From assembly GCA_004022145.1 (NCBI GenBank), contig RCNU01000007.1: a DNA stretch of 20,000 nucleotides; one strand, written 5' to 3'. This stretch comes from Paecilomyces variotii (taxonomy: Eukaryota). The stretch's first letter is position 1, and each line of letters opens with the position of its first letter. The notes beneath the pieces were generated by a model. That model did no database searches. It saw nothing but the letters and a program-made list of their open reading frames with translations, and was not told the origin of the DNA. Shown here piece by piece: positions 1,532 through 20,000 of the stretch. A program made the translations under genes and the position numbers.

Positions 1532-3934
1532 ATGGTCCACGAGTTACATGCCATGGCGTCCATCGGCTCTCTTCTCACCGTTCTGGCGGCTCTGGCGCCG
1601 ACCACACTGGCTCAGGCCAACACCTCTTATGTGAACTATAGCGTCCAGGCGCAGCCAGATCTGACGCCTCGGACCCTGGCCACGATCGATCTCTCCTTCC
1701 CCGACTGCACCAATGGGCCATTGAGCACGAATCTCGTCTGCAACACCTCGGCGACCCCGTGGGACCGCGCGAGTGCTCTAATCTCTCTTTTCACGCTCGA
1801 GGAGCTGGTTAACAACACCGGTAACACGGCTCCTGGTGTCCCGCGTCTGGGTCTGCCTCCCTATCAAGTGTGGAATGAAGCCCTGCACGGATTGGACCGC
1901 GCAAACTTCACCCCATCAGGGGACTACAGCTGGGCGACGTCCTTCCCGATGCCCATCCTGTCTATGGCCGCGCTGAACCGGACTCTGATCAACCAAATCG
2001 CATCTATCATCGCAATTCAGGGTCGTGCATTCAACAACGCCGGACGGTATGGTTTGGACAGCTATGCTCCGAACATCAACGGTTTCCGCAGCCCTATGTG
2101 GGGACGTGGACAGGAGACTCCTGGTGAAGACGCACAGTATCTGAGCGCCGTGTATGCTTATGAGTACATCACCGGTTTGCAAGGTTTGGACGAGGAACAC
2201 CAGAAATTGCTGGCCACGGCGAAGCACTTTGCCGGTTATGACCTGGAGAACTGGGACGGCCACTCTCGCTTGGGTAATGATCTCAACATCTCGCAGCAAG
2301 ATCTTGCCGAGTACTACACGCCCCAGTTCCTGGCTGCGTCACGGTATGCCAAGGTGCGCAGCTTCATGTGCTCCTACAATGCAGTCAATGGCGTTCCCAG
2401 CTGCGCCAATCCGTGGTTGCTGCAGACGCTGCTCCGTGAGTCCTTTGATTTCGTTGATGATGGTTATGTCTCTTCCGACTGTGATGCCGTCTACAACGTC
2501 TTCAACCCTCACGAATACGCCGGAAACCAGACCGCTGCTGCTGCTGTCTCCCTTCTTGCAGGTACTGATATTGACTGCGGAACCGATTATCCCTGGTTTT
2601 TGAACGAATCCTTCTACGAGGGACGCGTCTCGCGCGGCGACATCGAGAAGAGCGTCATCCGTTTGTATTCGAATCTGGTCCGTGTGGGCTATTTCGATGG
2701 CAACGATACTGAATACCGGAAGCTGGATTGGAATGATGTCCTGAAGACCGATGCACAGAACATCTCATATGAGGCTGCAGTGGAAGGAATTGTCCTTCTT
2801 AAGAATGACGGCACGCTGCCGCTATCCAAGAAGGTGCGCAGCGTCGCGCTCATCGGCCCATGGGCAAATGCTACTACCCAGCTTCAAGGAAACTACTTCG
2901 GACCTGCCCCCTACCTGGTTGGTCCCCTGGCAGCGTTCCAGGAGACCTCGCTGCAAATTAATTATGCTTTCGGGACCAACATCTCCTCTAACTCCACCGA
3001 GCAATTTGCCGAGGCCATCAGCGCAGCTAAGAAGTCAGACGTTGTCGTCTTTGCCGGTGGTATTGATAACACCATTGAGGCGGAGGGCATAGACCGCATG
3101 AACATCACCTGGCCCGGAAACCAGCTCACTCTCATTGAAGAGCTTAGCAAGCTCAACAAGCCGCTGGTAGTTTTGCAGATGGGTGGTGGCCAGGTGGACT
3201 CCTCTTCGCTGAAGGAGAACCCGAAGGTCAACTCCCTCGTCTGGGGTGGCTACCCCGGCCAGGCTGGTGGATATGCTCTGGTCGATATTCTCACCGGCAA
3301 GCGTGCACCCGCCGGTCGCCTCGTCACCACACAGTATCCCGCGGAATATGCCACCCAGTTTCCCGCGACGGATATGAGCCTGCGTCCCGAGGGCAGCAAC
3401 CCCGGACAGACTTACATGTGGTACACTGGCAAGCCTGTCTACGAATTCGGTAGCGGTCTGTTCTACACTACCTTCTCCGTCTCTGAGTCCTCGTCAAGCA
3501 CCAAGAGTTTGAGCGTGAGGGGAGGCAACAGCTACAACATTGTCGACCTTCTGTCACAGTCCCATGCGGGCTATGAGTACATTGAACAAGTCCCCTTCCT
3601 CAACTTCACCGTCACTGTGAAGAACACCGGAAAGACCGCTTCCCCTTACTCCGCCATGCTCTTCGCTAACACCACGAACGCCGGACCTGCTCCATACCCC
3701 AACAAGTGGCTCGTCGGTTTTGATCGCCTGCCAGAGATTAACCCCGGAGAGTCTACCACGCTGACCATTCCTGTGGCTATTGGTAGCGTGGCGAGAACCG
3801 ACGAGGACGGAAACAGGATCCTTTACCCTGGAACGTATGATCTGGCGCTCAACAATGAGCGTGATGCCGTTGTCAGCTTCACTTTCACTGGTGATGCTAC
3901 TGTGCTGGAGAGGTGGCCCAGTCCTAGCTCCTAA
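1532..3934 (+). CDS. xlnD: Secreted GH3 exo-1,4-beta-xylosidase (XlnD/Bxl1 type); start may be ATG 1553
   Basis: Intronless 800-aa ORF with a hydrophobic signal peptide ending ...TLA-QANTSYV. GH3 motifs WNEALHG, WGRGQETPGED, KHFAGY, MCSYN, VSSDCDAV (nucleophile) and GIDNTIEAEGIDR (acid/base region), plus an Fn3-like C-terminus (KWLVGFDRL). Closely resembles Aspergillus XlnD. ATG 1553 has the stronger context (GCCATGG). Confidence 0.93.
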   Translation: MVHELHAMASIGSLLTVLAALAPTTLAQANTSYVNYSVQAQPDLTPRTLATIDLSFPDCTNGPLSTNLVCNTSATPWDRASALISLFTLEELVNNTGNTAPGVPRLGLPPYQVWNEALHGLDRANFTPSGDYSWATSFPMPILSMAALNRTLINQIASIIAIQGRAFNNAGRYGLDSYAPNINGFRSPMWGRGQETPGEDAQYLSAVYAYEYITGLQGLDEEHQKLLATAKHFAGYDLENWDGHSRLGNDLNISQQDLAEYYTPQFLAASRYAKVRSFMCSYNAVNGVPSCANPWLLQTLLRESFDFVDDGYVSSDCDAVYNVFNPHEYAGNQTAAAAVSLLAGTDIDCGTDYPWFLNESFYEGRVSRGDIEKSVIRLYSNLVRVGYFDGNDTEYRKLDWNDVLKTDAQNISYEAAVEGIVLLKNDGTLPLSKKVRSVALIGPWANATTQLQGNYFGPAPYLVGPLAAFQETSLQINYAFGTNISSNSTEQFAEAISAAKKSDVVVFAGGIDNTIEAEGIDRMNITWPGNQLTLIEELSKLNKPLVVLQMGGGQVDSSSLKENPKVNSLVWGGYPGQAGGYALVDILTGKRAPAGRLVTTQYPAEYATQFPATDMSLRPEGSNPGQTYMWYTGKPVYEFGSGLFYTTFSVSESSSSTKSLSVRGGNSYNIVDLLSQSHAGYEYIEQVPFLNFTVTVKNTGKTASPYSAMLFANTTNAGPAPYPNKWLVGFDRLPEINPGESTTLTIPVAIGSVARTDEDGNRILYPGTYDLALNNERDAVVSFTFTGDATVLERWPSPSS

Positions 3935-6369
3935 GTAAGAATTAGAAGTTGAAACGGGGCACGGCGGAGAAGAAACAGCATATATATAGTAAAAAATAAA
4001 CCATTCAATGTTAATTAGACGAGTATCTCTATAATACTCGCATTACATACGTGCATAACTTAATACAAAAAATTCCGACTCGTTCTCTTGTTTGCTTCTC
4101 AAGTACGATCCTTTATTCATCACACAGTAGGCAAAGAATTACCAGTATGCTGATCTCCTATAGAATGTAAACCCCCCTTAAAACTTGGACCATGTTCGCA
4201 TACTTCATATAAAAGTTCAAGAAACATACAATGCGAGTCTGCCTGCTAGCCAGAAAAGGAACCCAATCTCAAGAATCCAGTAAATTCCCCTGTAGTAGTT
4301 AATCAGAGACCTGGAACAGATAGTAGCTTTGAGTGAAATTACAGATACTCGGTAATCACCAACAGAGTAGGTCCCTTCACTCCCCTTTCCATAGGAATAT
4401 CAAGTGAAGGCCGCAAATACCCATCTACATCTCTATGAATGGAGAGAACGGAGAGTAAAACGACGTTTATTTCACTCTCTACCCCTCTATTTAAACCCCC
4501 ATGAATCTTTCTCCGAGTTGCATTTAACTCTTTTCTCGTATACATATCTGCCGTTGGGTCGGCGGTATATATAACGTTATTTAATATGCCTGCTTCCTCG
4601 TTACGATAGTATGTTTAATGGATCAGTCCGGCCAAGGATCTGCCTACACCAGAGGATGTCGAGGAAATAATCAAACTGCCTGTTCCACGCATCAAGACAT
4701 CCGTTGCCGGTCTCTTTTTCCTGGACCCGAACGACTACGAAGGAGTCGCAGAATCAAAATGGCCCATCAAATATGGGATAGACGACTCGCAATTTGTGTA
4801 TGACGAAGATACAGACACCTCCACTATGCACTGGCCGTATATCTGATAGCTTATGAACTGCCATTCGATACCTAAGTGTTACAGAACTAGCAGCAGGCAG
4901 GTACGGCCACGCCCTGGGCAGGCCGGGGCCGGGACATCACATATACTTAGCCTAGTATATTAGCCTTCCCCTCCATAGAGAGGAATATCATCATCTTCAT
5001 CATCCCACTGCGATCTTTCGTATCACTAAGTTTCATATGTTAATATCATTGAACTTAGGAGATGTCCACTACTGATGCCGCTGCTGATGCGGTCGTCCTG
5101 CTGCTTCCGAGACAGAGCACTCTGTTGACAGATCATATGAAGAAATGGTAATTTTCTCATTGATCGATTTCCTTCAGGTGATATACTTGAAAATTTCTCA
5201 TCGGTTCGGGAAGAGGATCATCTTCCCGCGGGTGATATATGTTCGGCAGACTCCGAGCTTAGGGTCCGGAGGATAATAATTCTTTCAATAATTCTTATAA
5301 TTATTGCATTGCAGCACTTCTGCTTCCAGTCGATGCTCTCTTCAAGACCGTCCCTCCTTCGGTCACTCAAAATGCCATTTGGCTTCCTATTCTGATCCCC
5401 TTCTAAGCTTTGCTGGTTAGAGGGATTCTACAATTTCTTTCTAACTAGGAGTTAGAAATTTAACTTATTAAGATCATTGGACATAATGCTTTTATAACTT
5501 TAAAGAAAAAATTAACTAAAAATAAGATAGATAGTATATTTCTATCTCTCCCTCTCTCTTTTTCTTTATATATATATATACTTATATATATAATTATTAA
5601 CTGGCATATAGTCTATACTCTATTAGGCTTATAAAAATTAAATATATAATTTATATATTTTAGAAGCTATACTTTATATAAATTAATAAGAATTATCTGC
5701 TCCTTATATATAGGATTATACTAGCAGAATATTAATATAATTCTTAATTATAAAGCAATAAAATTTAAAATAATAAAAGGGAATATTTATAATATATACC
5801 CCTCTACTGTCCTAATAATACTTAACTATATATTATATTAAAGTCTATTAGCTAATATCCTAATAAGAATTATCTTCCCTTAGGTATAGAATAAAACTAC
5901 TCCCTTTATCTTTTATATAAAGATAAAAACTATATTAATACTAGTTCTTTATAATAGGTAGTTAGGTTTATTATTTATATATATAGATTTAATCTTTAAA
6001 AATATTACTATAACTCTATTATTCTTAAATATATATAGAGTATATATTTACTAGCCCCTAGAAGATAAAACCTAGGTATATATCTTTTATATATATTATA
6101 TTAAGTATTAATATCTTATAGAGTATAAGAGTATATATATAAGAATATAATTATAATATTCTTTTAATAAATTAACTCTATCTATATAAATAAATATATA
6201 TTATATATTATATAGTATAAATAAGTCTTAATATAATATAGGTGTTTTATATATATTAATTACAATATTAATTACTAATCTAAGTTAATATATTATTAAA
6301 GAGATTATATCTTTATTAAAAGATATATTTAATTTATTCTCCTATTTAAATTATATAGACTGGTTATAT

Positions 6370-6560
6370 GGGTGGTTTGGTTCGGTTCAGGGGAGGGTTA
6401 GACTGCCTATAGTGGGTTTTAGTTTAAGGCAGGAAAACTATACTTAAACCGAACTATATTCTGGCGGTTCGGTTTAAAACTAAAAAAACCAAAATATTTG
6501 CTAAGACCGGGCGCTAAACTAACTTAAGTTAGATTTTTCTTAAACAGTTTGGTTTAAATA
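6370..6560. repeat. Left subterminal repeats of the hAT (GGTTCGGTTT/AAACCGAAC variants)
   Basis: Multiple GGTTYGGTT / AAACC(G)AA units in both orientations next to the TIR, typical of hAT transposase-binding subterminal regions. Confidence 0.8.
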
Positions 6561-7089
6561 GTTTATACAGTTTACAGTATTAAAGGTATTAATATTCTAT
6601 ATTATTTTATATTATTATTAAATTTATATCCTTTTAAATCTATAGCTAAAAAATAGTTTAGATATAATATTATTATATTAAATCTAAAAGTATAAAGATA
6701 GTCTTTTAAAATATTATTAAATATTAATATAGACTTTAAAATAATTGTTATAGAAATATATATATATATTTATAAACTATAGTGCTAATAGAGTACTATT
6801 AAACAATATATATAATTTATTATAAAAGCTAAAGTTATTAAACTAAAGAATAGATTTTATTTACTATTATTATTCTTAATAGAAAGTAATTTCTAGATTA
6901 TTCTTTTAATAAGTTAACAGTAAAATCTATATATAATTAGTAAGTTATAACTTCTATAAAAAATATATAAATTCTATATATTTATAAAGCTTATTAAAAT
7001 TCTAACTTAAGTTTAAACTATTAAGATCATATTATTCTTATAGCTATTTCTTTTTTATCTAGATATAGTTTTTAAATTAAATATTATTC

Positions 7090-8700
7090 TCTTATAATAG
7101 ATAATCCCCTAATTAAGCTATTTAATATAGCTATTCTATTATAAATTGCAGATACTTATTTTGCCCTGATTTAGCTCTATTAATATAATACTATAATAAT
7201 AAAACTAAGATCTTTTTTCTTATTAATTTTAAGAAATAATTCTATACTGGAAGAAGAAATTAATATAATTATTTTTAGCTAGGATCTTATAGATTATAAT
7301 CCCAAATTATAAGATATTTTTCTTTATTATTTAAGGAAGCAATTAAAGCAATTCCCTAAATATACTAGAATTATTTGTCCTAAATTAGATTAGCTATCTA
7401 TATTTTTATTAGTGTACTAAACATAATAAGCTAAGTTATTTAATGCTTTTTTGCGGTAGACTATAAGTAGAAATATATATCTTATATATTAATATCGGGC
7501 AATAAAATTTGCTAATTTGCCTTTTAAATAATATTAAGAAAAGAAAGAAAGCAAGAATAAATATAAGGATATCCCTTAATCTTATTAAGCTAAATAAGAA
7601 ATATAGCAATTTCAGATAAAATAACTTTAGGATTAGTAAAGATATCCTTAAGAATAATTAGATTAATCTTAACAGTAACTATTATAACCCAGGGCTAATA
7701 TCTTTTTTTTTTAAAGGCGAATTAAATAAGATAATTTTAAAAAAAAAATATTAAGATTTTATAAAGCAATAGTTAAAAGAAATTATAAGTTATTTATTAT
7801 TATAATAGCTCTAGGTACAAAAGGCGGTTTAGATAAACAATCTAAGCTAGAAAAGAGTATTTTAACTTAAGTTAGAATATACTAAAAGGTTATACTTAAA
7901 GTATTTAGCATTACTTTAGCTATATTACTAAATAAACTGACTATTGCCTATATATAATTTAGCCTATAAAGGAATAAGATAAATAACAAATATTATATGC
8001 TAATCTTTTAGTTAAGTATATTTAACTAAAACCTAAGAATCTAAAGCGCCTTTAAGATATTACTATAAGCTATTAAGAAAGAAATACAAGCAGCAAGTTA
8101 TTATAAGATATTACTAATAATAGAGATAATAACAAATTAAATATATAATAAACCTACTTATAATTTAACTTAAGTTAGAATTTATAAATTTAGTCTCTAA
8201 AAAATAGGCAAGGCTTGCTTATTTAATTAGCAATAATCTTACTAATAATAGTTAATTAAAGCAGTAATAGAATAATTAATAAGGGAGCCTAGGGAGTCTC
8301 TAACATTATATACCTATATATATACAATTTCTTAATTAGGTATAGTCTATATTGGGAGTATATATATTATATTATTTTTTCTTTTACTATATTTACTTCT
8401 TTTACTAAATATACTCTTTGGTAAAAAGAGTAGATTTTAACCTAATTAAAATTTAATTAAGGAACTTTAGGTAAGGAATAGTGCATAAATTAGATAATAA
8501 TCTAACTTAAGTTAAATTATTTTTAAGGATATAAGGGAAGATTATTATATATTACTATAAATTACTAATCCTACTATAATTAAAATTCTAACTTAAGTTA
8601 AAGACTCTATAATTTTATCTATTAGAAAAATAGTATAAATAATAAAAGCACCTATCAGATAATAAGGCAAACTTTCTAAAATTTTAATATAAAGAACCCA
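7090..8700 (+). pseudogene. RIP-degraded exons of unknown product (5' part of the ParB-like gene or a third gene)
   Basis: Codon-like frame at ~7100-7630 with RIP-type stops, and intron-like segments carrying the palindrome (e.g. 8471-8527 GTAAGG...TTTAAG). No domain recognised. Confidence 0.4.
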
Positions 8701-11540
8701 GCTAGAAGTATTAATAAAAGAGACTTAAAGCTTATAATTACAGTAATTCTATAGAACCCTATTTAGATTTTAAGCCTATTTAAATTAATATGCTATATAG
8801 GCTAAAGGCCTATATAGCTAAGGCTAGAGTCTTTTTAATAATAAGAGATAATATAATCTGCGCAGAGCTTAAGAATAAATATCTAAGAATATTATATATA
8901 GATATAAGAAAGCTTAAAATATCTTAGAAAGACATAGAATGCAATTAAGATATTAATATTAATTATATTAAGAATTTAAAGAATAAATTCTATACTAGCA
9001 TATGGAGATTTGATATTAATATATAAATAAAAGTGACCCTAAATATTAAGGACTTTAACCTAGCGTTATAGATATATATAGCAGAACTATTAGAATTAAT
9101 AAATATTAGTAATATCTGCAGTCTCTTAAGGCAGCAGCAGAGTAAAAATAGCAACTTTTTTATCTATTTAAAAAAATGGCTAGAAGAGCTTATATTGTTA
9201 ATATTATAAGCCGGGCAATATTATTATATAGCTCTTCTAAAGCTACTGATTAAGTAAAAAAAAACAGCTACTGCTAAAGCTATTAATTATAAAAAAAAGA
9301 TAATTAAAAGACTATAGGCTAATATATATCCCTATTTTAATTTAAATTAGAATTTAGCTAATTAATCTATAGATATATCTCTGGGCTATTAACCTCTATA
9401 ATAAGGCAATATTATTAGAAGTTCTTATAATATTATAATCTAATCATAAAGATATTGCTCGTATTAATATTAATAAAGAATATATGCTCTTACTTATTAA
9501 AGAATAGGAGAAAAAACCTATAGATTAATATAAAGAACTGCTAAAAAATTATAAAGAGTTTAAAAATTAGGCATACCTTATTATTAGTATATTATTTAAC
9601 TATATAGCTTATGCTATAGCCCCTCTGCGCAGTAATATTTAATTGCAATATTTATAGGAATATTTGCGGATAGCTTATAATTGCTCTTATTAGAACTATA
9701 TATTAAGAGAGATAATTATAAATATAAAGCTAAATTAGATATATTTGGGGATCTAATTTTAATTTTAATTTTCTAACTTAAGTTAGATCTAGATTATAGA
9801 GTTTAAAAAGTTTTTTAGCTTTATTAAGATAATCTTTATAGATAAGTAGAACAGAATAATATTAATAAAAGATTAAAGACTAATTACTAAATATTACTAT
9901 AGCGCAAGCAATTATACCTTATATATATTATTCTTTCTTTTGTGGGCAGATTATAAAAATAATAGACTTAAATTATTTTTAGATTGTAAGTAGTTTAATA
10001 AATAATTATTACCTTGCTTAAAGATTCCTATACTATTTCTTAAAAACTCTACTTAATAACTATCTTTCTTTATAGCCCTGCCGGATAAAGTATATATATA
10101 AGTATAGAAGAATATTTCAAAGAATAGGGAACTTAAGTTCCCCTTATAATAAGTTTTAACTTAAATTAGATATAAAAATTAATTGCAAACTAATTATTAT
10201 AGGAGCTTATAGATTAATTTTAATAATAAAGTTAGTCTTCTATTAAAATCTATGCTGAAATATATTATATTCTAATATAATTTAGAGTAGCAGTATCCTA
10301 CCGCAGCTTCTAAATATCTCTAAGAATTCTAATAGATAAATAAACTTTAATATTCCCTTTTTTATAAGTCCAATAATATATATACTGCTAAAGGCTTTAT
10401 AAAAAAACTTATTAATAAGCTCTATAAAGACTCCCTGTAGACCTAGGCAGATCTAAAGCATTATATAATAACTTTACTTAACTATAATTAGAATTAATAC
10501 TAATATCTTTTAGCTATTAAAACTATATAGCAATTTCTACTTTTAGAATATTAAAGAATAAGATAGTTATAACTAATAGTATATATATCTTTCCTATTTT
10601 AAGCGGCGCTATTAGACTTATATCCTCTATATAACTTCTGAAGCAGTCCTATTTAATTTTAAGGATATTATAAGTTAATTTAATAATAAGAGCAAGATTA
10701 TAAGTCTAGACTATTCTAACTTAAGTTAAAATTAATATAATATAGGGTAAATAACTTTTTATCTTTACTGTCTTTAGCAGTATTATATAGTGAGCCTAAT
10801 TCTAATATAATAATATAATAAAGAATCTAAGAATCCTAAAAATTAACTAATATAAGGATAACTTAAAGACTTAATCTAACATTACTGGGGCTCTATAGAT
10901 ATACTAATTTATTAAGAGAAGTATAGTTTATATTATAAAGCTTAGCTTCTCTAAGACTAATAATTGTAAGAAAGATTCTAAGGATTTTATTAAGACTAAG
11001 GTATATATGCCACTAATCTAACTTAAGTTAGAAATTAACCTAATTTAGAAGGAATAATATTAATATTTACAGGCATTAAGAGAGGTTGCTAATTTTTTAA
11101 TTAAATAAGACTAGACTCTAGATATAGATAATATAAATAAATATCTGCGGTGCTTTATACTGGATTGTAATCTTAAAATTAAGAATAAATATACTGCTTA
11201 GAAAAAGTTATATACGCCTCTTTTAATCTTATTAAACTAACTATTAATAAATAAATGCCCTTATAATAATAATAAGGAATAATATAAGCTAGAGAATTAG
11301 AAACAGCTCTAAGCTATTACTTTTAATATCTTAAGGAAGAAATAGAAAGTATTAAAGGATTTTATAAGTAAATAGATTAATATATCTATTCTAACTAAAG
11401 TTAGAACAAGATTTAATTAAAATTTTAGATTGAGATGCAGAGACTAATAGGGCAAATAATATATTTTAAAAAAATAATATAGATAATAATAATAAAGGTA
11501 AGTTATTTTTCTTACTAATTATATTATTAAACAGTTATAA
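8700..11540 (+). pseudogene. RIP-degraded intron-rich gene with a ParB/Srx-like domain (DUF3723-like); boundaries approximate
   Basis: One frame at 8856-9323 reads KYL(R/G)ILYIDIRKL...N*DININ(Y/H)(I/V)KNLKNKFYT(S/G)I(W/R)RFD...IL*AGQ(Y/H)(Y/R)YIALLKL. Removing a 49-nt intron (9324-9372) puts YLWA(I/V)(N/D)LY in frame, followed by L*SNHKDIAR. This matches my recollection of the motif order in DUF3723-type proteins. Confidence 0.65.
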
Positions 11541-12042
11541 TAATATTATTATTATAAATATAAAAATGGGGCTAAGTTTTTGGTTTAGGTTTAAATTTTT
11601 TAGTTTAACTTTAGGTAAGCTATCTTAATAATATTTACTTAGTATATAAGAAACTAACTTAAGTTAGAAATAAAATAATCAGGTTTTTTTTAGACTAATA
11701 ATATAATCTCCACTTCTAAATTAGATTATTTAAGAGTAGTTTTTTTCTAGTAATAAGAACTTATATTATTTAGAAGCTTTATCTCTAACTTAAGTTAGAG
11801 TAGATTCTATTAATAGGATAGAAATTAATTCTTAGGGATTTAATTTAAGTTAATATGGCTATTGCTTTTTATTTTTATTTTGGGATAATAATTAAGGATA
11901 GAAGAGTAAGACTGTAAAAATAGGGACTATAGAATAGAAGAAAAAAATAGTATATTTTAATAATTTAAGCTGGCTCTATAGCAATCTAAGATATAATATA
12001 TTTAAGCAAGAATCTAACTTAAGTTAAAATGCTATAGACATT

Positions 12043-14890
12043 ATGCCGCCGCTAATATTATTATTTTTAAGTTTTTCCTCCTCCTTACTTTACTTTAATA
12101 GGGACATATTAGGATTACTAGGTCCTTTATTATAGTTTTAGAATTATATTATTTGTACTCTTATAAAGACCTACAAGACTCTTTTATTTTTAGATACTAA
12201 TATCTAGGATATAAATTTTGATTATAATCTTATTAAATAATATAAGCCCCAATCTAAAGCTAATATTCCTAACTTAACCGAACTTAAGATAGTAAGATAT
12301 AGTTAAAGAAAGGCTATTATCTATCTAGCTTTTCTAGAACAGGTTTAGATTTTTAAATTTTAATAAAATAAAATAAAGTTTGTAAAATAGCAGTCTAAGT
12401 TTTAATAAATAAAAATAAAGATTTAATTATATATATAGCAATACTATTAAGAAGTTGCAGATAATATTTCTAGTGTTTCTTATATATAATATTTATATTG
12501 CTCTATATTTCTTCAATATCTTTATAAAGGAGGAAATAGCACTAGCTTAATAGCCGCCTATATAAAAAGGGCTATATACTGATCTAGAGATAAGACTTGG
12601 AAAAATAGTAATATTTAAAATATATTAATTGTAAAGGTAAGAACTAAATAATTAATATAGACTTTATTACTGATATTTTCTTTAAAAAACTTTTAATCTA
12701 ATATATATATTAGATATATTATATAATCAGATCCTATATTTTATTACAAAATATTGCCAATTATTTTAAATAGTTAAATATATTTAGTTTTACTGTATGT
12801 TATATATAGCTGCTAATAATTTATATCTAGAGTTACCTAACTGATATTAGATTCGAGCACGCCTTTTTAAATTTAAGGAGATTAATCATACTAAAATACT
12901 GTTATATTTATTAGAGCAAAAAAAAATTTCTTTAATATTAGATTATTAGACTAGTTAAAATTAATATTCTTTTCTTACTATAACTAGGTATTTTATTGAT
13001 ATAAAATAGGTATATAAGGAAGTATTCTTAGCCTTTAATTCTATCTACAGATTATATACTAGGAAAAACTTAATTAAAATACTGCTAAAGAATCTTTGTT
13101 AATATAATCTATAATATTAGATTCTTATTATTACTATAAATAATGCAAGTAATAATATTATCCTAATAGCGGAGCTAGATAAAAGCCTAAGGGATAAGCT
13201 TAAAACAGATTTATTATTAGAAAATTTCTAAGATATAATATTAAGTTAACTTATTTTAAATCGCTATTATATTCTATATTTAGCATATATTTTATAATTT
13301 GCAGTTAATGCTTTACTAAGTAAACTCTATATTAATGCTCCTATTAATGATGGTATTAATTAGGATATAAAAAAGGATAGAGGCTTATTATATCCTTAGG
13401 GTATCCTAATATTATTAGAAAAGGTATTCTTTATCTAACTTAAGTTAGATTAATACTAATAGATTTTTATATAGGTTTGTAAGATTATTAGATTTATTAA
13501 TGCAAGCCCTTAGCGTTAGAAACATTTTTTAATATTATAATAATTAAGTACCAATTAGCTAAAATTATTACTTCTTAATTGCCGGACATAATGGAATTTA
13601 ATATACTTTATACTTATATATGCCCTTGAACTATATGCAATAATTGGATGATTTATTATATTATAAGCTAATAAAGATATTTATTTTCTGATATTATCTC
13701 CTACTAAATGGTATTAGATTAAATATTTTATTAAATTAACCTAGCTATTCTATAATCTTATTCTCGCTATATTAAAGATAAACAGTCTATTAGTTTATAG
13801 GGTTTTTGAAATCTATAATATTATCTTTAATTATCTTAATAACTATATAGAGCATTTAAAATTAAAAAGAGCTATATAAAAGATCTAACTCTGAAATACT
13901 TTATTTAAAGCTTATAATAAGTTATAAACTTATTATGCCAAAATATATAAATCTTAAGGATTTATATATATAATTGCAATGATCCTTTACCCTAGTATAA
14001 AATTTAAATATTTCAAAACTTAAGTCTGGCAAGATATAATAAAAAACTAGCATAATACTTATAAAAAGATTTTTTATAAGGTATTTTAATACTATAGTAA
14101 TTAAAATCTAAATATTAAGGTATAATCGGGAACCTATTTATTAGTCTTAATTTTAGATTATATGCTTATACAATCTAAATATTGTCATCTCCCTTTAAGT
14201 ATTACTAGTATTTATTGAGAAATTCAGACTTATCTTACTAAAGGTAATATTCTATCTAATATTATATCTAAATCATATAATATTATTCTAACTTAAGTTA
14301 GATTAGGTTTATTAGAATTAGATAATATCCTTAACTATTAGAGAATTAATAAATATTAATTCCTAATTTTTATAATAATAGCCTAAGATTTTCTTATAAT
14401 CCTATTAAATAATATTGGTATAGAATAATTATTTAATAATGCCCAAGATATCTGCTATTACCAATATAGCTAACTACTTCCTAATATAATCTATGTTTTA
14501 ATACTTCTTATATATACTAAAAATTTCACTATTTAGTAGAAGTTTAAGGCAATAACTAATAATATAGATATAATACCTAATAATTAATAATCTAAAAGGG
14601 AGAAGATTAAATCGCTAAATCTAATTAGTGATAATAAGAATATAAATAATATATTAGAAGGAGAGATAGATATAGATAATAAAGATTATTAAATAGAGCA
14701 GTTCAGGGGTTAAGGTCTTTTAAATATTTAAATAGATTAACCTATTACTAAGTCTACTTATAATAAAGGAGAATAATTAGATAAATTGCCTATATTTAGA
14801 GTTTTTATATATCTTTAGAGGAATATAATAACTATAGATAGATCTAAGTCTTCTAATTATTACTTACGCCAGATTAACTATATTAAAGGC
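12043..14890 (+). pseudogene. hAT transposase, RIP-inactivated (3' end approximate)
   Basis: De-RIPped motifs appear in the correct order. BED finger CxxC...GGNSTSxMAAH at ~12490-12580 is in frame with ATG 12043. LDCWTSxNQYSFLAITGYFID has the first D at 12941, followed by GSHTGKNLA, ITTDNASNN (~13130-13156), HIPCLAHILQ (~13268-13297), LEK^VRKI..FINASPQR across intron 13424-13474, and DCRTRWNSTY (13577-13606). After intron 14244-14306 comes MARDFLAIP...GVERLFN.ARDICHYRR with E at 14423. Confidence 0.93.
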
Positions 14891-15059
14891 TAATATAAAT
14901 GTTAAAAATCTAATTTAAGTTAGACTCTAATATTATATTCTAATATTATTCTACTAATTTTTAGTTAATATTTAGTGATAGATATTATAAAGAAATAAAA
15001 ATCTAAATAGTTCTTAAAGATTAATAAGATTTATATAAAAATTTAGATTAATCTAAAGT

Positions 15060-15250
15060 AACTAAAAAAAACCAAAAAAACCGAATTAAACTAAAAAACC
15101 CAAAAAAACCAAATCTAAAAAAATTATATGGTGCACTATAAACCATCGGTTCGGTTTACAAAGTCTATAAACCGTTCCGGTTTATAAAATTATAAACCGA
15201 ACCAAACTATAGGCAGTTCAGTTCGGTTTAATTCGGTTTTTTTAGTTTTC
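15060..15250. repeat. Right subterminal repeats of the hAT
   Basis: Dense AAACC(G)AA / TTCGGTTT units in both orientations next to the right TIR. Confidence 0.8.
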
Positions 15251-17579
15251 TATAACCACTCTATTTAAATATTCTTTTAAAAAGAGGAAATAAATTTATA
15301 TTTTAGTAATTACTATTATTAGTAGTAATCTTTAACTAATTCTTAGGCCTTATTATCTTATTAAGTCAGAATATAATACTTATATGCTTTTTATAGCCTA
15401 AATAGGGTATTTAAAAAATAAGCTTAAAAAAAATTAAATAATTCTTTTATTATAACTTTAGCAGGTACTTAATTTAGCTAAAAATTTATATGCTAAGATA
15501 ATATTTTTATTTAAGTAGCTTAATACTAATTTTATAATATAGTTTAGAATAAAATTTTATTAGGATATAAATAGATATAATATAGTCTATACTAATAATA
15601 TATTATTATTTATTCTTAGTATATTCTAGTTATTGCTTTTAAGACAGTATTTAGCTATATTTTTTAGCCTAATTTTATATTTATTTTAAGCCTAAGATTT
15701 AGTGTATAAGATTAAAATAGAAATAAGTTCTTTATTAGTTAGCTAGAAATACTAAGATTTAAGAATATATATAGAAAAGATTATATCTACTATAAAAAAG
15801 ATATATAACTTATTTAATATAGAGATTACTTATATTTATTTATTTATTTAACTTATTTATCTTTTTAAGATAAAGTACTCCTATAGTATTAATAATTATA
15901 ATATTAAATTTATCTAGGATTAATTAAATATAATTAAATTATCTAAGGTTTAATAAGCTAAAAATATCTCTTCTCTTATTAATTTTAAGCCAATCTATTA
16001 GAATTAATATTTAGAACCTCTTAAATAAATAATATATATTTTTTTTTACCTCTTAATATATAAAATTATCTAACTCTATTATTATTATAGTCTATTTATA
16101 ATTTCTTAAAATAGGGAAATAGTATATCTCTTATTTACTTTATTTAACTAAGACTATTTAGATTATTTAAAAGAAGCCTTAGCTAAATATTTTTTAGAGG
16201 TTTATGCTAGGTTATAAATATATAGTCCTTTTAATATTTTTATAAAATATAGAATTTTAACACTTAACCCTTATAGATAAGAAGGTAAGCTCTTTATATT
16301 ACCCTACTAAAGTTAGTTAGAACTAAATATAAAGTAGTAATAAATAAATTTTATATATATATTATTAAGATTATATAGAAAGGCCTTATATATTTATTTT
16401 TAATAAAAGATTTATTTTATATTATAATTTTTAATACTATTAAATATTAGGATAAGGCTATAAATAATCTAAAATATATTATATTTAAAGTAGAGGGAAT
16501 TATTATTATATTAACTATTCTAAGTTTAAAAATAAGATTTTTAAAAAGGTAATTACCTAAATAGTTATTATAAGTTTTAAAGATATTATTAGCAATATAA
16601 TAAATATTATAATAGGGCTAATTATTAATTTATAATTAAATCCCTAAGTCTATATTAATTAAAGTTTATAATATTTTTAGTCTTAAAAAGAGGAGTATAT
16701 AATAGCTAATTTATAGTTTACTTCTATAGCTTATCCTTATAATATAATAAATATATTATAATAAATAGATAGACTTATCTTCTTATAAATAAGTTAATCT
16801 ACTGCTTATTATTTTTATAAATAGAGAGATTATTTATTAATTAATTATATTAAATCTATAAACTATATATTAAATAAGAATAAAGAGAATTTAATAAAAT
16901 ATATTATCCCTATTATTAGTAACTTAGAAATAGATATAAATATAAATAATATAGAAGGTAAAGGATAAAAGTTTAAATTAAAGCAGAAGTATAAGAAGAG
17001 GCTAGCTAATATATCTAATAATAAAAAAAAGATTAAACTAATTAATAAAGGGTTAAGGTATTAAAAAGAAGAGAATTAAGACTTCTTATAATATTACTAT
17101 TATATTATCTAATATTATTAAAAATTTTAAAAGCCTTATATTATTTTTTATTAAATTAGAAAAAGAATAATTATTTTTAAGAAAAAAAATATAATATAAT
17201 TAATAATATTTATTATTATAATTATATTAAAAGTAAAGAATTATTAAATACTTAATGCTAAGTATAAATTTATAAAGGCTTATTTATATATATATTATTA
17301 TATCTCTATTTATTTTCTCCCCTTATTTTATTAGTTTTTTTTTTTTTTATTCTTTTAGGATTATATATTAATTTAAATAATAAATATTAGTTTTATATAA
17401 TATATTAAGGCTATAATTATATTAGCAGTAATTAGATTAATATAATATTTAATTATTAAGTTTCTCTCTTTTTAAGCAATTATATTATAAGTTGCAGAAT
17501 ATATATATATAGTAAGACTATAGAGTTTAGAAGTCTATAAAATTAATTAACCTTTTTACACAGGAAATTAAATAACTAA

Positions 17580-19279
17580 ATTTAGCTTCTTATTCTAATC
17601 TCTTTCTAAGCTTTACTAGTTAAAAAGATTCTATAATTTCTTTTTAACTAGGAGTTAGAAATTTAACTTATTAAGATTATTAAATATAATGCTTTTATAA
17701 TTTTAAGGAAAAAATTAATTAAAAATAAAATAAATAATATATTTTTATCTCTCTCTCTCTCTTTCTTTTTATATATATATACACTTATATATATAATTAT
17801 TAACTAATATATAATCTATACTTTATTAAGCTTATAAAAGTTAAATATATAATTTATATATTTTAAAAGTTATATCTTATATAGATTAATAAGAATTATC
17901 TACTTTTTATATATAAGATTATGCTAGTAAAATATTAATATAATTCTTAATTATAAAATAGTAAGATTTAAAATAATAAAAGGGAATATCTATAATATAT
18001 ACCCCTTTATTATTACTAATAATACTTAGCTATATACTATATTAAAGTCTATTAATTAATATCCTAATAAGAACTATTCTCCCTTAAATATAGGGTAAAA
18101 TTACTCCCCCTATCTCTTATATAAGGATAAAAATTATATTAATGCTAGTTTTTTATAATAGGTAATTAGGTTTATTACTTATATATATAGATTTAATTTT
18201 TAGAAATATTACTATAATTTTACTATTTTTAAGTATATATAAAATATATATCTACTAGCCTCTAAAAGATAAAACCTAAGTATATATCTCTTATATATAT
18301 TATATTAAGTATTAATATCTTATAGGGTATAAAAGTATATATATAAGAATATAACTATAATACTCTTTTAATAGACTAACTCTATCTATATAAATAAATA
18401 TATATTATATATTATATAGTGCAAGTAAGTCTTAATATAATATAGGTGCTTTATATATATTAACTATAATATTAGTTACTAACCTAAATTAATATATTAT
18501 TAAAGAGATTATATCTTTATTAGAAGATATACCTAATTTACTCCCTTATTTAAGTATTTTTTTAAAAAAAGAAAATAAATCTATATCTTAATAATTACTA
18601 CTATTAGTAGTAATCTTTAATTAGCCCTTAAGCCTTATTATTTTATTAAGTTAGAATATAATATTTATATACCTTTTATAGCCTAAATAGAGTATTTAAA
18701 AGATAAATTTTAGAAAAATTAAATAATTTCTTTATTATAACTTTAGCAGGTATTTAATCTAATTAAAAATTTATATACTAAGATAATATTTCTATTTAAG
18801 CGGCTTAATACTAATTTTATAATATAATTTAAAATAAAATTTTATTAAGATATAAATAGATATAATATAGTCTATACTAATAATATATTATTATTTATCT
18901 CTAGTATATTTTAGTTATTATCTTTAAGGCAGTATTTAGCTATATTTTCTAGCCTAATCTTATACTTATTTTAAGCCTAAGATTTAGTATATAAGACTAA
19001 AACAGAAATAAGTTCTCTATTAATTAGTTAAAAATACTAGGATTTAAAAATATATATAGAAAAGATTATATCTGCTATAAAAAAAATATATAACTTATTT
19101 AATATAGAGATTACTTATATTTATTTATTTATTTAACCTATTTATCTTTTTAAGATAAAATACTCTTATAGTATTAATAATTATAATACTAAATTTATCT
19201 AGGACTAATTAGATATAACTAAGTTATCTAAGGTCTAATAAGCTAAGAGTATCTCTCCTTTTATTAATTTTAAGCTAAT
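17580..19279 (+). repeat. Second direct copy of 5377-6350 plus 15264-15994 (5'-truncated duplicate of the unknown gene, lacking the hAT)
   Basis: Colinear over ~1.7 kb. For example ATTTGGCTTCCTATTCTGATCCCCTTCTAAG (5377) matches ATTTAGCTTCTTATTCTAATCTCTTTCTAAG (17580). The match ends at TTTTAAGC(C/T)AAT (15994/19279). Confidence 0.93.
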
Positions 19280-20000
19280 TATAAAGAATAGAGATTCCTA
19301 GAAGTTACTAATAAATTATTCTGCTAATAATTATAGCGAGAGAGATAGCAGCTTTATATACCTAGCTTAGAGAAGAGTTTACTAGTAAGATAAAGGGTTA
19401 ACTATTATAATAAAGAGTCTAACTAGTATAAAAAAGAGTCTATACTAGAAGGTTTTAGTAATAAAGAGTCTATATAAGTAAAGAAATAGTAAAGTATATA
19501 TTATATTAGAATAGATTACTAGCTTCTAATAAGATAGTAATCTAGAGCCTATTTATATTCTAAATCTTAAGTACTTCTTAGCTTTATCTTATATAAATCC
19601 TAAAAGCGAGAAGAGTAAGGTTTAATTAATTACCTTAGTATTATATTTAGATTTAGGGCTTTACTATAATCTTATAAGCTTATACTCTAGTAAGAAGCTA
19701 GGGGTATAATAATATCTCCCCCCTTTTTAAAGGCTTATCCTTAAGCTATTATAAAGTTATTATATTAAATATAGAATATAGCTTTATAGAGATTTATAAT
19801 ATAATAAATAAAGAAGCTTTTTATTACCTTTATAATAAAAGGTTAAGAAGTTATATAAGCTAAGAGTATTATTTATATAATACTATAAGATTAGAATTTT
19901 AACCTCTAGTAACTATTTTCTTATCTCTTATTATATATAGCTCTTAGTCTTAAATATATTTAAATAAAGATCTAGATATATTTAAGTTTACAATACTACT
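19280..20000 (-). mobile_element. LTR retrotransposon 3' end (LTR ~19280-19714, PPT 19715-19728), runs off the window
   Basis: Homology to copy 1 breaks exactly at 19280. The 435-bp segment has termini TATAA...AATA, consistent with RIPped TGT...ACA. It abuts TCTCCCCCCTTTTT, a minus-strand polypurine tract AAAAAGGGGGGAGA. Superfamily not determinable. Confidence 0.7.

Follow-up and report, generated by a model that had tools for sequence, protein, structure and literature searches.

A 16-bp palindrome recurring along a degraded hAT transposon of Paecilomyces variotii

The AT-rich part of a 20,000-nucleotide stretch of the Paecilomyces variotii genome (contig RCNU01000007.1 of assembly GCA_004022145.1; hereafter the window) holds a DNA transposon of the hAT superfamily, degraded by repeat-induced point mutation (RIP), along which a single 16-bp perfect palindrome, TCTAACTTAAGTTAGA, recurs. 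The 16-mer is real and statistically secure, and before RIP the element carried about 18-19 identical copies of it. Our leading interpretation of its role, tentatively held, is that the palindrome may be a family-specific, operator-like binding site that is kept wherever coding allows and that sometimes doubles as a branch point. A first-pass annotation of the same DNA had noticed the palindrome and had placed it inside predicted introns of both genes of the transposon, an assignment that proved too narrow.

At no more than two mismatches, 17 matches to the palindrome are found in the window, as against 0.06 on average, and never more than 1, in 200 dinucleotide-preserving shuffles, none of which reached 17; two further decayed copies with three mismatches each (9336 and 10271) bring the total to about 19. 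All 17 lie inside the element; the remaining AT-rich RIPped DNA (5.6 kb) and the normal DNA (5.3 kb) have no copy (p=0.00025 for all-in-element placement under uniform placement over 5500-20000). The copies are spaced along the element at a median of 383 bp, and the motif is the sole over-represented 10-12-mer within it. Most of their mismatches are C>T or G>A changes, T being found at position 2 in 8 of the 34 half-sites and at position 6 in 2 of the 34. Conservation covers exactly 16 bp: from the first base outside them, information content is at background. Likewise, the flanks (60 bases, ungapped, best orientation) show an identity of 23.1 versus 22.0 +/- 0.6 at random sites, or 32.6 versus 32.2 +/- 0.3 with transitions ignored, and the earlier remark that the predicted introns are dissimilar beyond the motif is thereby borne out. 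Insertion of a miniature inverted-repeat transposable element or other small transposon was rejected, given a unit of just 16 bp and no conserved or duplicated flank bases; introner-like or sister introns were also rejected, with flank identity at background even when transitions are ignored. Rfam models gave 0 matches at the gathering score across the whole window.

Read in its three frames, the motif gives TCT AAC TTA AGT TAG, CTA ACT TAA or TAA, and because its reverse complement is the identical sequence, all six frames contain a stop codon. Because of these stops the palindrome cannot be coding, and its absence from exons is forced. The long exons translated in the first-pass annotation (8856-9323, 12.9-13.4 kb and 13.5-14.2 kb) do lack copies, as it had said, a result that follows from the all-frame stops rather than being an independent observation. 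Its further suggestion, that selection maintains the motif wherever non-coding space exists, can be retained to the extent that the non-coding placement is either forced or selected, but the exon/intron contrast offered in its favor is imposed by the stop codons themselves. Each of the nine segments that it listed as introns does hold one copy, seven of them with zero or one mismatch (8501, 9772, 10715, 11017, 11390, 13434 and 14287), one with two (10155), and one with three (9336). Nevertheless, the palindrome is not restricted to these segments, since more than half of the copies, 9 of 17, are found elsewhere (6518, 7001, 7861, 8164, 8587, 11653, 11784, 12013 and 14909). The copies at 6518 and 14909 are outside any recognised gene, and the distribution is consequently better described as the non-coding parts of the element than as the inside of introns. 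Beside these copies stands the variant GGGAACTTAAGTTCCC, 13 nt ahead of the decayed 10155 copy; in contrast to the main motif, this variant leaves two of the three frames without a stop, and its predicted RNA hairpin has an energy of -8.5 kcal/mol.

Two of the nine listed segments, 13424-13474 and 14244-14306 (introns A and B), are real introns as judged by homologue alignment, with one copy each. Both correspond to gaps in five of five spliced homologues (P0004, P0006, P0007, P0011 and P0013), and the alignment is good on either side of them (LEK followed by V-KIIRFINASP, and YLTK followed by GLLELD..YW); the other seven segments rest on splice-site-like letters. The intron positions are old, because the open reading frame (ORF) fragments of many relatives end right after LEK/V or YLxEG/. 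In the more distant relatives P0003 and P0012 the second intron is translated as 21 residues with no stop codon; these relatives therefore lack the motif, which arose in an existing intron with no lengthening. Gain of the motif through change inside an existing intron under selection would thus fit better than simple insertion of 16 bases. The palindrome of intron A starts 10 nt past the donor and lies 25 nt from the acceptor, with an ACTAAT available nearer to it, and that of intron B ends 4 nt before the acceptor. CTAAC is present in the motif on both strands, and in intron B its A is 15 nt from the acceptor. RNA folding predicts a motif hairpin of -5.4 kcal/mol, formed in the predicted folds of both introns, and the whole-intron folds are not unusual save for intron B (z of -0.9 for A and -2.6 for B). 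A third transposase intron at 12637-12714/12731, together with a BED-finger-like stretch at ~12480-12636, seemed plausible on visual inspection but was rejected, its alignment score of 35 being below the shuffled mean of 38. This candidate opens with AG/GTAAGA at 12635 and contains, at 12697-12714, TCTAATATATATATTAGA, in which the arms of the motif, altered by RIP, flank an AT centre of 6 bp; relaxed matches of this type are common by chance, with 30 in the window and about 8 in mononucleotide shuffles of 5500-20000.

The gene interrupted by introns A and B is, by homology, a hAT transposase. A phmmer search with a translation of 12851-14560 in which stops were read through as X returned 670 matches at E<=1e-3, six of them at E<=1e-30, and a profile from 26 full-length homologues has no match in the window other than 12719-14647, where profile positions 101-678 of 719 align. 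The homologues carry Dimer_Tnp_hAT (PF05699) or hAT-like_RNase-H (PF14372) above the Pfam cut-off. The window's own transposase translation reaches E=0.034 at best for PF14372, and RIP therefore strongly blunts domain searches. Pfam gave no match on read-through frames of 2900 residues, for which shorter pieces are needed, and there was no match in a word-based search with the transposase read-through, the intact fragments being shorter than the length range searched, or in JGI metagenome contigs with P0002 as query. The long protein P0015 was set aside as a repetitive hAT array unrelated to the region upstream of the transposase.

The best homologues, P0001 (228 amino acids) and P0002 (213 amino acids), are ORFs from Logan contigs of up to 8358 nt that align without gaps, at 61% identity, to 13610-14293 and 12797-13435, respectively. 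Every one of the 174 differing residues is derivable from P0001/P0002 codons via C>T and G>A alone, as compared with a mean of 17-21 and a maximum of 28-30, of 84-90, in permuted-residue controls. It follows that RIP produced the window copy from a sequence encoding the P0001 and P0002 proteins, and these 174 differences, all C>T or G>A, make that copy a clean worked example of how a heavily RIPped gene can be read. P0002 ends in ...LEKVFSI, where the next window codon is the TAA at 13436-13438, and P0001 ends in ...SIILT, where the next is the TAA at 14294-14296; both TAA codons are inside palindromes, and the preceding residues fit the left arm of the motif. Because these intact ORFs end at palindrome stops, the motif is native to the element and older than RIP. 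The ORF tails of some distant relatives, ..LT or ..NLS (P0055, P0039), could encode part of the motif, and an ordinary branch point also explains them.

Concerning the claim that both transposon genes carry the palindrome, the second gene is this transposase, whereas for the putative first gene neither a Pfam match nor an intact homologue was found. A multi-intron gene on the + strand is plausible in the region upstream. Among 114 six-frame pieces of 200 residues there was no plausible Pfam family at E<=0.1, just two pieces matching DUF645 (E=0.087), and comparison of the region with 150 hAT proteins revealed no similarity. Word-based searches with 8604-9323 (lengths 30-420) returned P0151 alone, a 45-residue ORF of another RIPped copy, and no intact homologue, though the collection holds intact transposase fragments; a degenerate DNA pattern over 8856-8882 had no match in JGI metagenome contigs. 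Stop density favors the frame chosen in the first-pass annotation over 8603-9335 (16 stops versus a mean of 25.5), a measure that is too weak for exon mapping even in the verified transposase. AG/GTA donors are found upstream of four further copies (7861, 8501, 11017 and 11653), two of which, 8501 and 11017, are in listed segments. Taken together, 6 of the 14 + strand AGGTA sequences are followed by a palindrome within 55 nt (p=0.0025), namely those at 7813, 8469, 10999 and 11613 and those of the two verified introns, as against 0 of 6 on the - strand; without the two verified introns the count is 4 of 12 (p ~0.03). This clustering would be weak positive evidence for further introns. No canonical copy follows the strong donors at 11498 and 12637, and the surviving GTR donors have no strand bias (8 versus 9 of 18 sites).

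Several smaller observations concern the same region. At 11496-11535 the sequence AAAG/GTAAGT...TACTAAT...AAACAG is a very short intron look-alike without a palindrome, and the 60 nt at 11478-11537 are missing from contigs in two runs, whose shorter side has just 21 letters. One contig of run X3 skips the 86 nt at 7772-7857, which have GT..AG ends and stop 3 nt before the 7861 palindrome; with a shorter side of 31 letters, this could be a copy that lacks the intron-like segment or an alignment slip. Contig joints adjoining palindromes were rejected as deletions, their shorter sides of 20-31 letters pointing to mis-placements of the shared 16-mer.

What might such a motif do? Selection acting on the transposon family may preserve the 16-mer as a cis-element specific to that family. 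Its likeliest role would be that of an operator-like site for a protein that binds DNA as a symmetric dimer and that either the element or its host encodes. An array of such sites along a long element might serve transcription, compaction or end-pairing, or protection from silencing, and in copies near an acceptor, as in intron B, CTAAC would probably also be the branch point. Dyad symmetry, two 6-bp half-sites centred 10 bp apart (one helical turn), edges at 16 bp, invariance at about 19 places, restriction to the family, and subterminal copies all argue for a dimer site. Similarly, the variable place of the motif inside introns, near the donor in A and near the acceptor in B, fits a sequence allowed anywhere non-coding better than it fits a fixed splicing geometry. 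A number of points nonetheless weigh against a binding site. The motif is tied to introns: both verified introns carry a copy (p ~0.007, given 15 copies in 6980 nt outside the coding span), + strand AGGTA donors cluster upstream of copies as described above, and the 16-mer contains a consensus branch point plus TAG. In the 10127 variant three bases are changed per arm and yet the arms remain complementary, which suits a hairpin over a base-specific protein site. Further, Pfam, with low sensitivity after RIP, identified no DNA-binding or any other domain upstream; a single copy of the element is readable in full; and, to our knowledge, the binding-site arrays of transposons cluster near the ends and are not spread through introns.

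The features that tie the motif to introns would be accommodated by a splicing module acting at the RNA level, in which CTAAC is the branch point and a small hairpin presents or masks it, thereby tuning the removal of short introns, while the all-frame stops would cause unspliced transcripts to yield truncated protein. We consider this unlikely, albeit the most serious rival to a binding site. CTAAC fits the fungal branch-point consensus and is suitably placed in intron B, the hairpin forms in the predicted folds of both verified introns, each of which carries a copy downstream of an AGGTA donor on the + strand, and the 10127 variant keeps its stem despite changes in both arms. However, a branch point needs about 5-7 bases and is normally degenerate, leaving 16 invariant bases and their dyad unexplained; the intron A motif sits close to the donor, with ACTAAT nearer the acceptor; the hairpin is weak, and whole-intron folds are ordinary save for intron B. 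Copies 6518 and 14909 stand where no intron is expected, two strong donors have no canonical copy after them, and the surviving GTR donors are not biased to either strand. Rather less probable is a selfish mini-palindrome, a 16-mer that spreads itself via templated patch repair, gene conversion or insertion and survives only in non-coding DNA. Identical copies with unrelated flanks, found solely in non-coding space, are what such a sequence would leave, and some contigs of run X1 match just 10997-11032 (the motif plus ~20 nt), with GC-normal sequence unlike the element on both sides, a hint of copies outside this transposon family. This loose-end match is short, however, and was placed at 80% likeness; there is no target duplication or flank signature, no copy in the adjoining RIPped repeats or in the window's intergenic DNA, and the 21-residue intron B read-through of relatives without the motif indicates no net insertion. 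We also know of no such mechanism in eukaryotic nuclei.

More improbable still is a relic of intron multiplication, in which introns copied from one ancestor, in the manner of introner-like elements or the sister introns of Hypoxylaceae, would remain alike in only 16 constrained bases. There is a precedent in the Hypoxylaceae sister (stw)introns, which, in the portion of the report available, share the 10-nt palindrome WTTCTAGAAA within inverted repeats (PMC8469720). Against it, the positions of introns A and B are common to distant hAT relatives (the LEK/V and YLxEG/ ends; P0003, P0012) and are thus old rather than recent copies, and no similarity extends beyond 16 bp, even with transitions ignored. 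Finally, an artefact, with the motif arising by chance or through RIP in AT-rich, low-complexity DNA, might be suspected in a region of ~21% GC with RIP-like indices, where short AT-rich words recur, but it is refuted by the shuffles, by the flanking RIPped DNA without copies, and by the ORFs of intact relatives that already stop inside the motif. The binding site accordingly ranks ahead of the splicing module, the selfish palindrome and the intron-multiplication relic, in that order, with artefact excluded. Stated in its most consequential form, the array would be one of about 19 internal operator-like palindromes, present in every stretch that coding permits, introns included, and serving as a platform for binding or as DNA or RNA hairpins needed for movement, expression or escape from silencing, or else a tiny mobile palindrome that colonises fungal introns; that one of these holds is possible but doubtful. 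Either, if true, is a cis-architecture undescribed for hAT elements. The cis-elements of transposons are usually sought at their ends, and about 19 internal sites conserved base for base, two of them within verified introns, would point to a second layer of control in hAT elements, whether a partner protein, a splicing switch or a structural array. Tests of binding, splicing and transposition are feasible because an intact relative exists in public reads (P0001, P0002; contigs up to 8.4 kb).

The limits of the element are defined by the host sequence in which it is nested (Table 1). On either side of the insertion is the 10-bp sequence CTATTTAAAT in direct orientation, and a second copy of the host repeat preserves the empty site, which reads TTATTTAAGT; the 8-bp duplication would be made up of 8 of these 10 bases, their identity obscured by RIP. 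The terminal inverted repeats match at 11 of 12 positions (AGACTGGTTATA versus the reverse complement AGAGTGGTTATA), and in the subterminal regions 6408-6479 aligns with the reverse complement of 15190-15263. CGGTT/AACCG repeats occur within ~130 bp of either end. Given that subterminal repeats have an end-binding role in Ac and Hermes, these repeats are the likelier end-binding sites of the transposase, which would make the palindrome a site of a different kind.

The window is GC-normal from position 1 to ~5300 (GC 48-57%) and falls to 14-22% GC from ~5400 to 20000, with the dinucleotide pattern of RIP. For the element, TpA/ApT is 1.29 and (CpA+TpG)/(ApC+GpT) is 0.56, and for neighbouring normal DNA the values are 0.74 and 1.21; there are usual thresholds against which such indices are read. 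Transition-only differences from intact relatives, TpA excess and CpA/TpG depletion identify the element as a RIP-affected repeat. In four of four runs the assembled contigs comprise thousands of short pieces that are 80-99% alike and differ almost entirely by transitions, and the family is therefore multi-copy. The variant places listed (40 of 2021) include none within the palindrome and have no bearing on conservation of the motif among copies. Grain and food-fermentation metagenome runs (X4, X7, X8 and others) contain about one-tenth of the stretch's sampled words, and 2155 pieces from run X4 match it at 80-99% likeness; such samples therefore contain the family or its host.

The host repeat, itself RIP-degraded, occurs twice in the window, at 5377-6351 plus 15261-15561 and at 17580-18846, and the two copies are 87-88% alike. 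Repeat families and junction alignments show that it is uninterrupted at 17580-18846 and that the other copy is split at ~6351 / ~15261 by the hAT element. Near its start, at 5440-5456, and at 17643-17659 in the second copy (there TTTAAC...), is TCTAACTAGGAGTTAGA, which has 6-bp arms as in the hAT palindrome and another 5-bp centre, and which may be chance or a related site. In the GC-normal part, an intact ORF of 800 residues at 1532-3934 (+) with Glyco_hydro_3, Glyco_hydro_3_C and Fn3-like domains encodes a beta-glucosidase-type enzyme (glycoside hydrolase family 3), and its 3' end lies ~1.4 kb ahead of the AT-rich block.

Table 1. Features of the hAT element and copies of the palindrome, in window coordinates
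Feature	Positions	Strand	Basis or remark
Left target duplication copy CTATTTAAAT	6342..6351		8-bp hAT duplication within these 10 bp
hAT-superfamily DNA transposon, RIP-degraded	6352..15260	+	~8.9 kb (ends to within 5 bp); lies inside a different RIP-degraded repeat
Left inverted end (..TAGACTGGTTATA..) and subterminal GGTTCGGTT / AAACCGAA repeats	6356..6480		Read from sequence
Palindrome, 1 mismatch (ACTAAC...)	6518..6533		Left subterminal region
Upstream 6.2 kb, holds 14/17 copies	6534..12718	+	Candidate multi-intron gene
Palindrome, 2 mismatches	7001..7016		Motif scan
Palindrome, 1 mismatch	7861..7876		AG/GTA donor 48 nt upstream (7813)
Palindrome, 1 mismatch	8164..8179		Motif scan
Palindrome, 1 mismatch	8501..8516		AG/GTAAGG donor 8469-8476; in listed segment
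Palindrome, 1 mismatch	8587..8602		Motif scan
Decayed copy TTTAATTTAAATTAGA, 3 mismatches, all C>T or G>A	9336..9351		In listed segment
Palindrome, exact	9772..9787		In listed segment
Variant perfect palindrome GGGAACTTAAGTTCCC	10127..10142		10-bp core shared (core match 10130); outer arms different yet complementary
Palindrome, 2 mismatches, both transitions	10155..10170		In listed segment
Palindrome, 1 mismatch	10715..10730		In listed segment
Palindrome, exact	11017..11032		AG/GTATAT donor 10999-11006; in listed segment
Palindrome, 1 mismatch	11390..11405		In listed segment
Palindrome, 1 mismatch	11653..11668		AG/GTAAGC donor 11613-11620
Palindrome, exact	11784..11799		Motif scan
Palindrome, 1 mismatch	12013..12028		Motif scan
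hAT transposase coding region (by homology), RIP stops	12719..14647	+	Exons ~12719-13423, 13475-14243, 14307-14647
Intron A, 51 nt, GTATTC...TATAG	13424..13474	+	Gap in 5/5 spliced homologues (17 read-through residues)
Palindrome, exact, intron A	13434..13449		Motif scan and homologue alignment
Intron B, 63 nt, GTAATA...TTAG	14244..14306	+	Gap in 5/5 spliced homologues (21 read-through residues)
Palindrome, exact, intron B	14287..14302		Motif scan and homologue alignment
Palindrome, 1 mismatch	14909..14924		Downstream of transposase gene, ~340 bp from right end
Right subterminal AAACCG/CGGTT repeats and inverted end (..TATAACCACTCT)	15130..15260		Inverted-repeat match
Right target duplication copy CTATTTAAAT	15261..15270		Junction alignment

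Set beside known systems, the element is in several respects an ordinary member of the hAT superfamily (Ac, Restless, Hermes): RNase-H-like and C-terminal dimerisation regions are evident through its homologues, the 10-bp duplicated target would include an 8-bp duplication, and the inverted ends are short and accompanied by short subterminal repeats. It differs in its length of ~8.9 kb, in the ~6 kb of unexplained upstream sequence, and in the dispersed array of about 19 palindromes, introns included. Many copies of one short motif within an element also characterise the subterminal arrays of plant transposons, such as the AAACGG hexamers of Ac and the 12-bp TnpA motifs of En/Spm, which bind an element-encoded protein; those arrays lie within a few hundred bp of the ends, whereas the copies described here are spread along the element. 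The fungal branch-point element CTRAY is short and degenerate. The motif resembles it in containing CTAAC and, in intron B, in standing at branch-point distance from the acceptor, but differs from it as an invariant 16-bp dyad with a variable place inside introns.

In the literature searched, no description was found of a palindrome array for hAT elements, introners or RIPped fungal repeats; a 14-mer of the motif did not occur, a 12-mer occurred only in an unrelated context, and a 10-mer had no transposon or fungal titles among the matches listed. Rust-fungus hAT elements have been described with a second gene, of the TET/JBP family, upstream of and co-oriented with the transposase, and with 7-bp duplications, and in the accessible part of that report no palindromic sequence marks the ends of regions homologous between elements (PMC12730594). 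As far as that part goes, these elements provide a precedent for a fungal hAT transposon with a second upstream gene, which here is a candidate, and they differ in that Tet_JBP was not found in our 114 pieces (Pfam E<=0.1, sensitivity low after RIP). The nearest analogue of the palindrome itself, in what is available of the work, is that of the symmetrical sister (stw)introns of Hypoxylaceae, where a short palindrome likewise recurs in several fungal spliceosomal introns; WTTCTAGAAA is reported there to be dispensable for splicing, its role being unknown (Fekete et al. 2021, PMC8469720). In the same account, the likeness extends over entire introns, which have 45-55 nt inverted repeats and have spread across unrelated host genes (PMC8469720), whereas in the P. 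variotii element similarity is limited to 16 bp, the introns have long been in place, and a single transposon holds every copy of the motif in the window.

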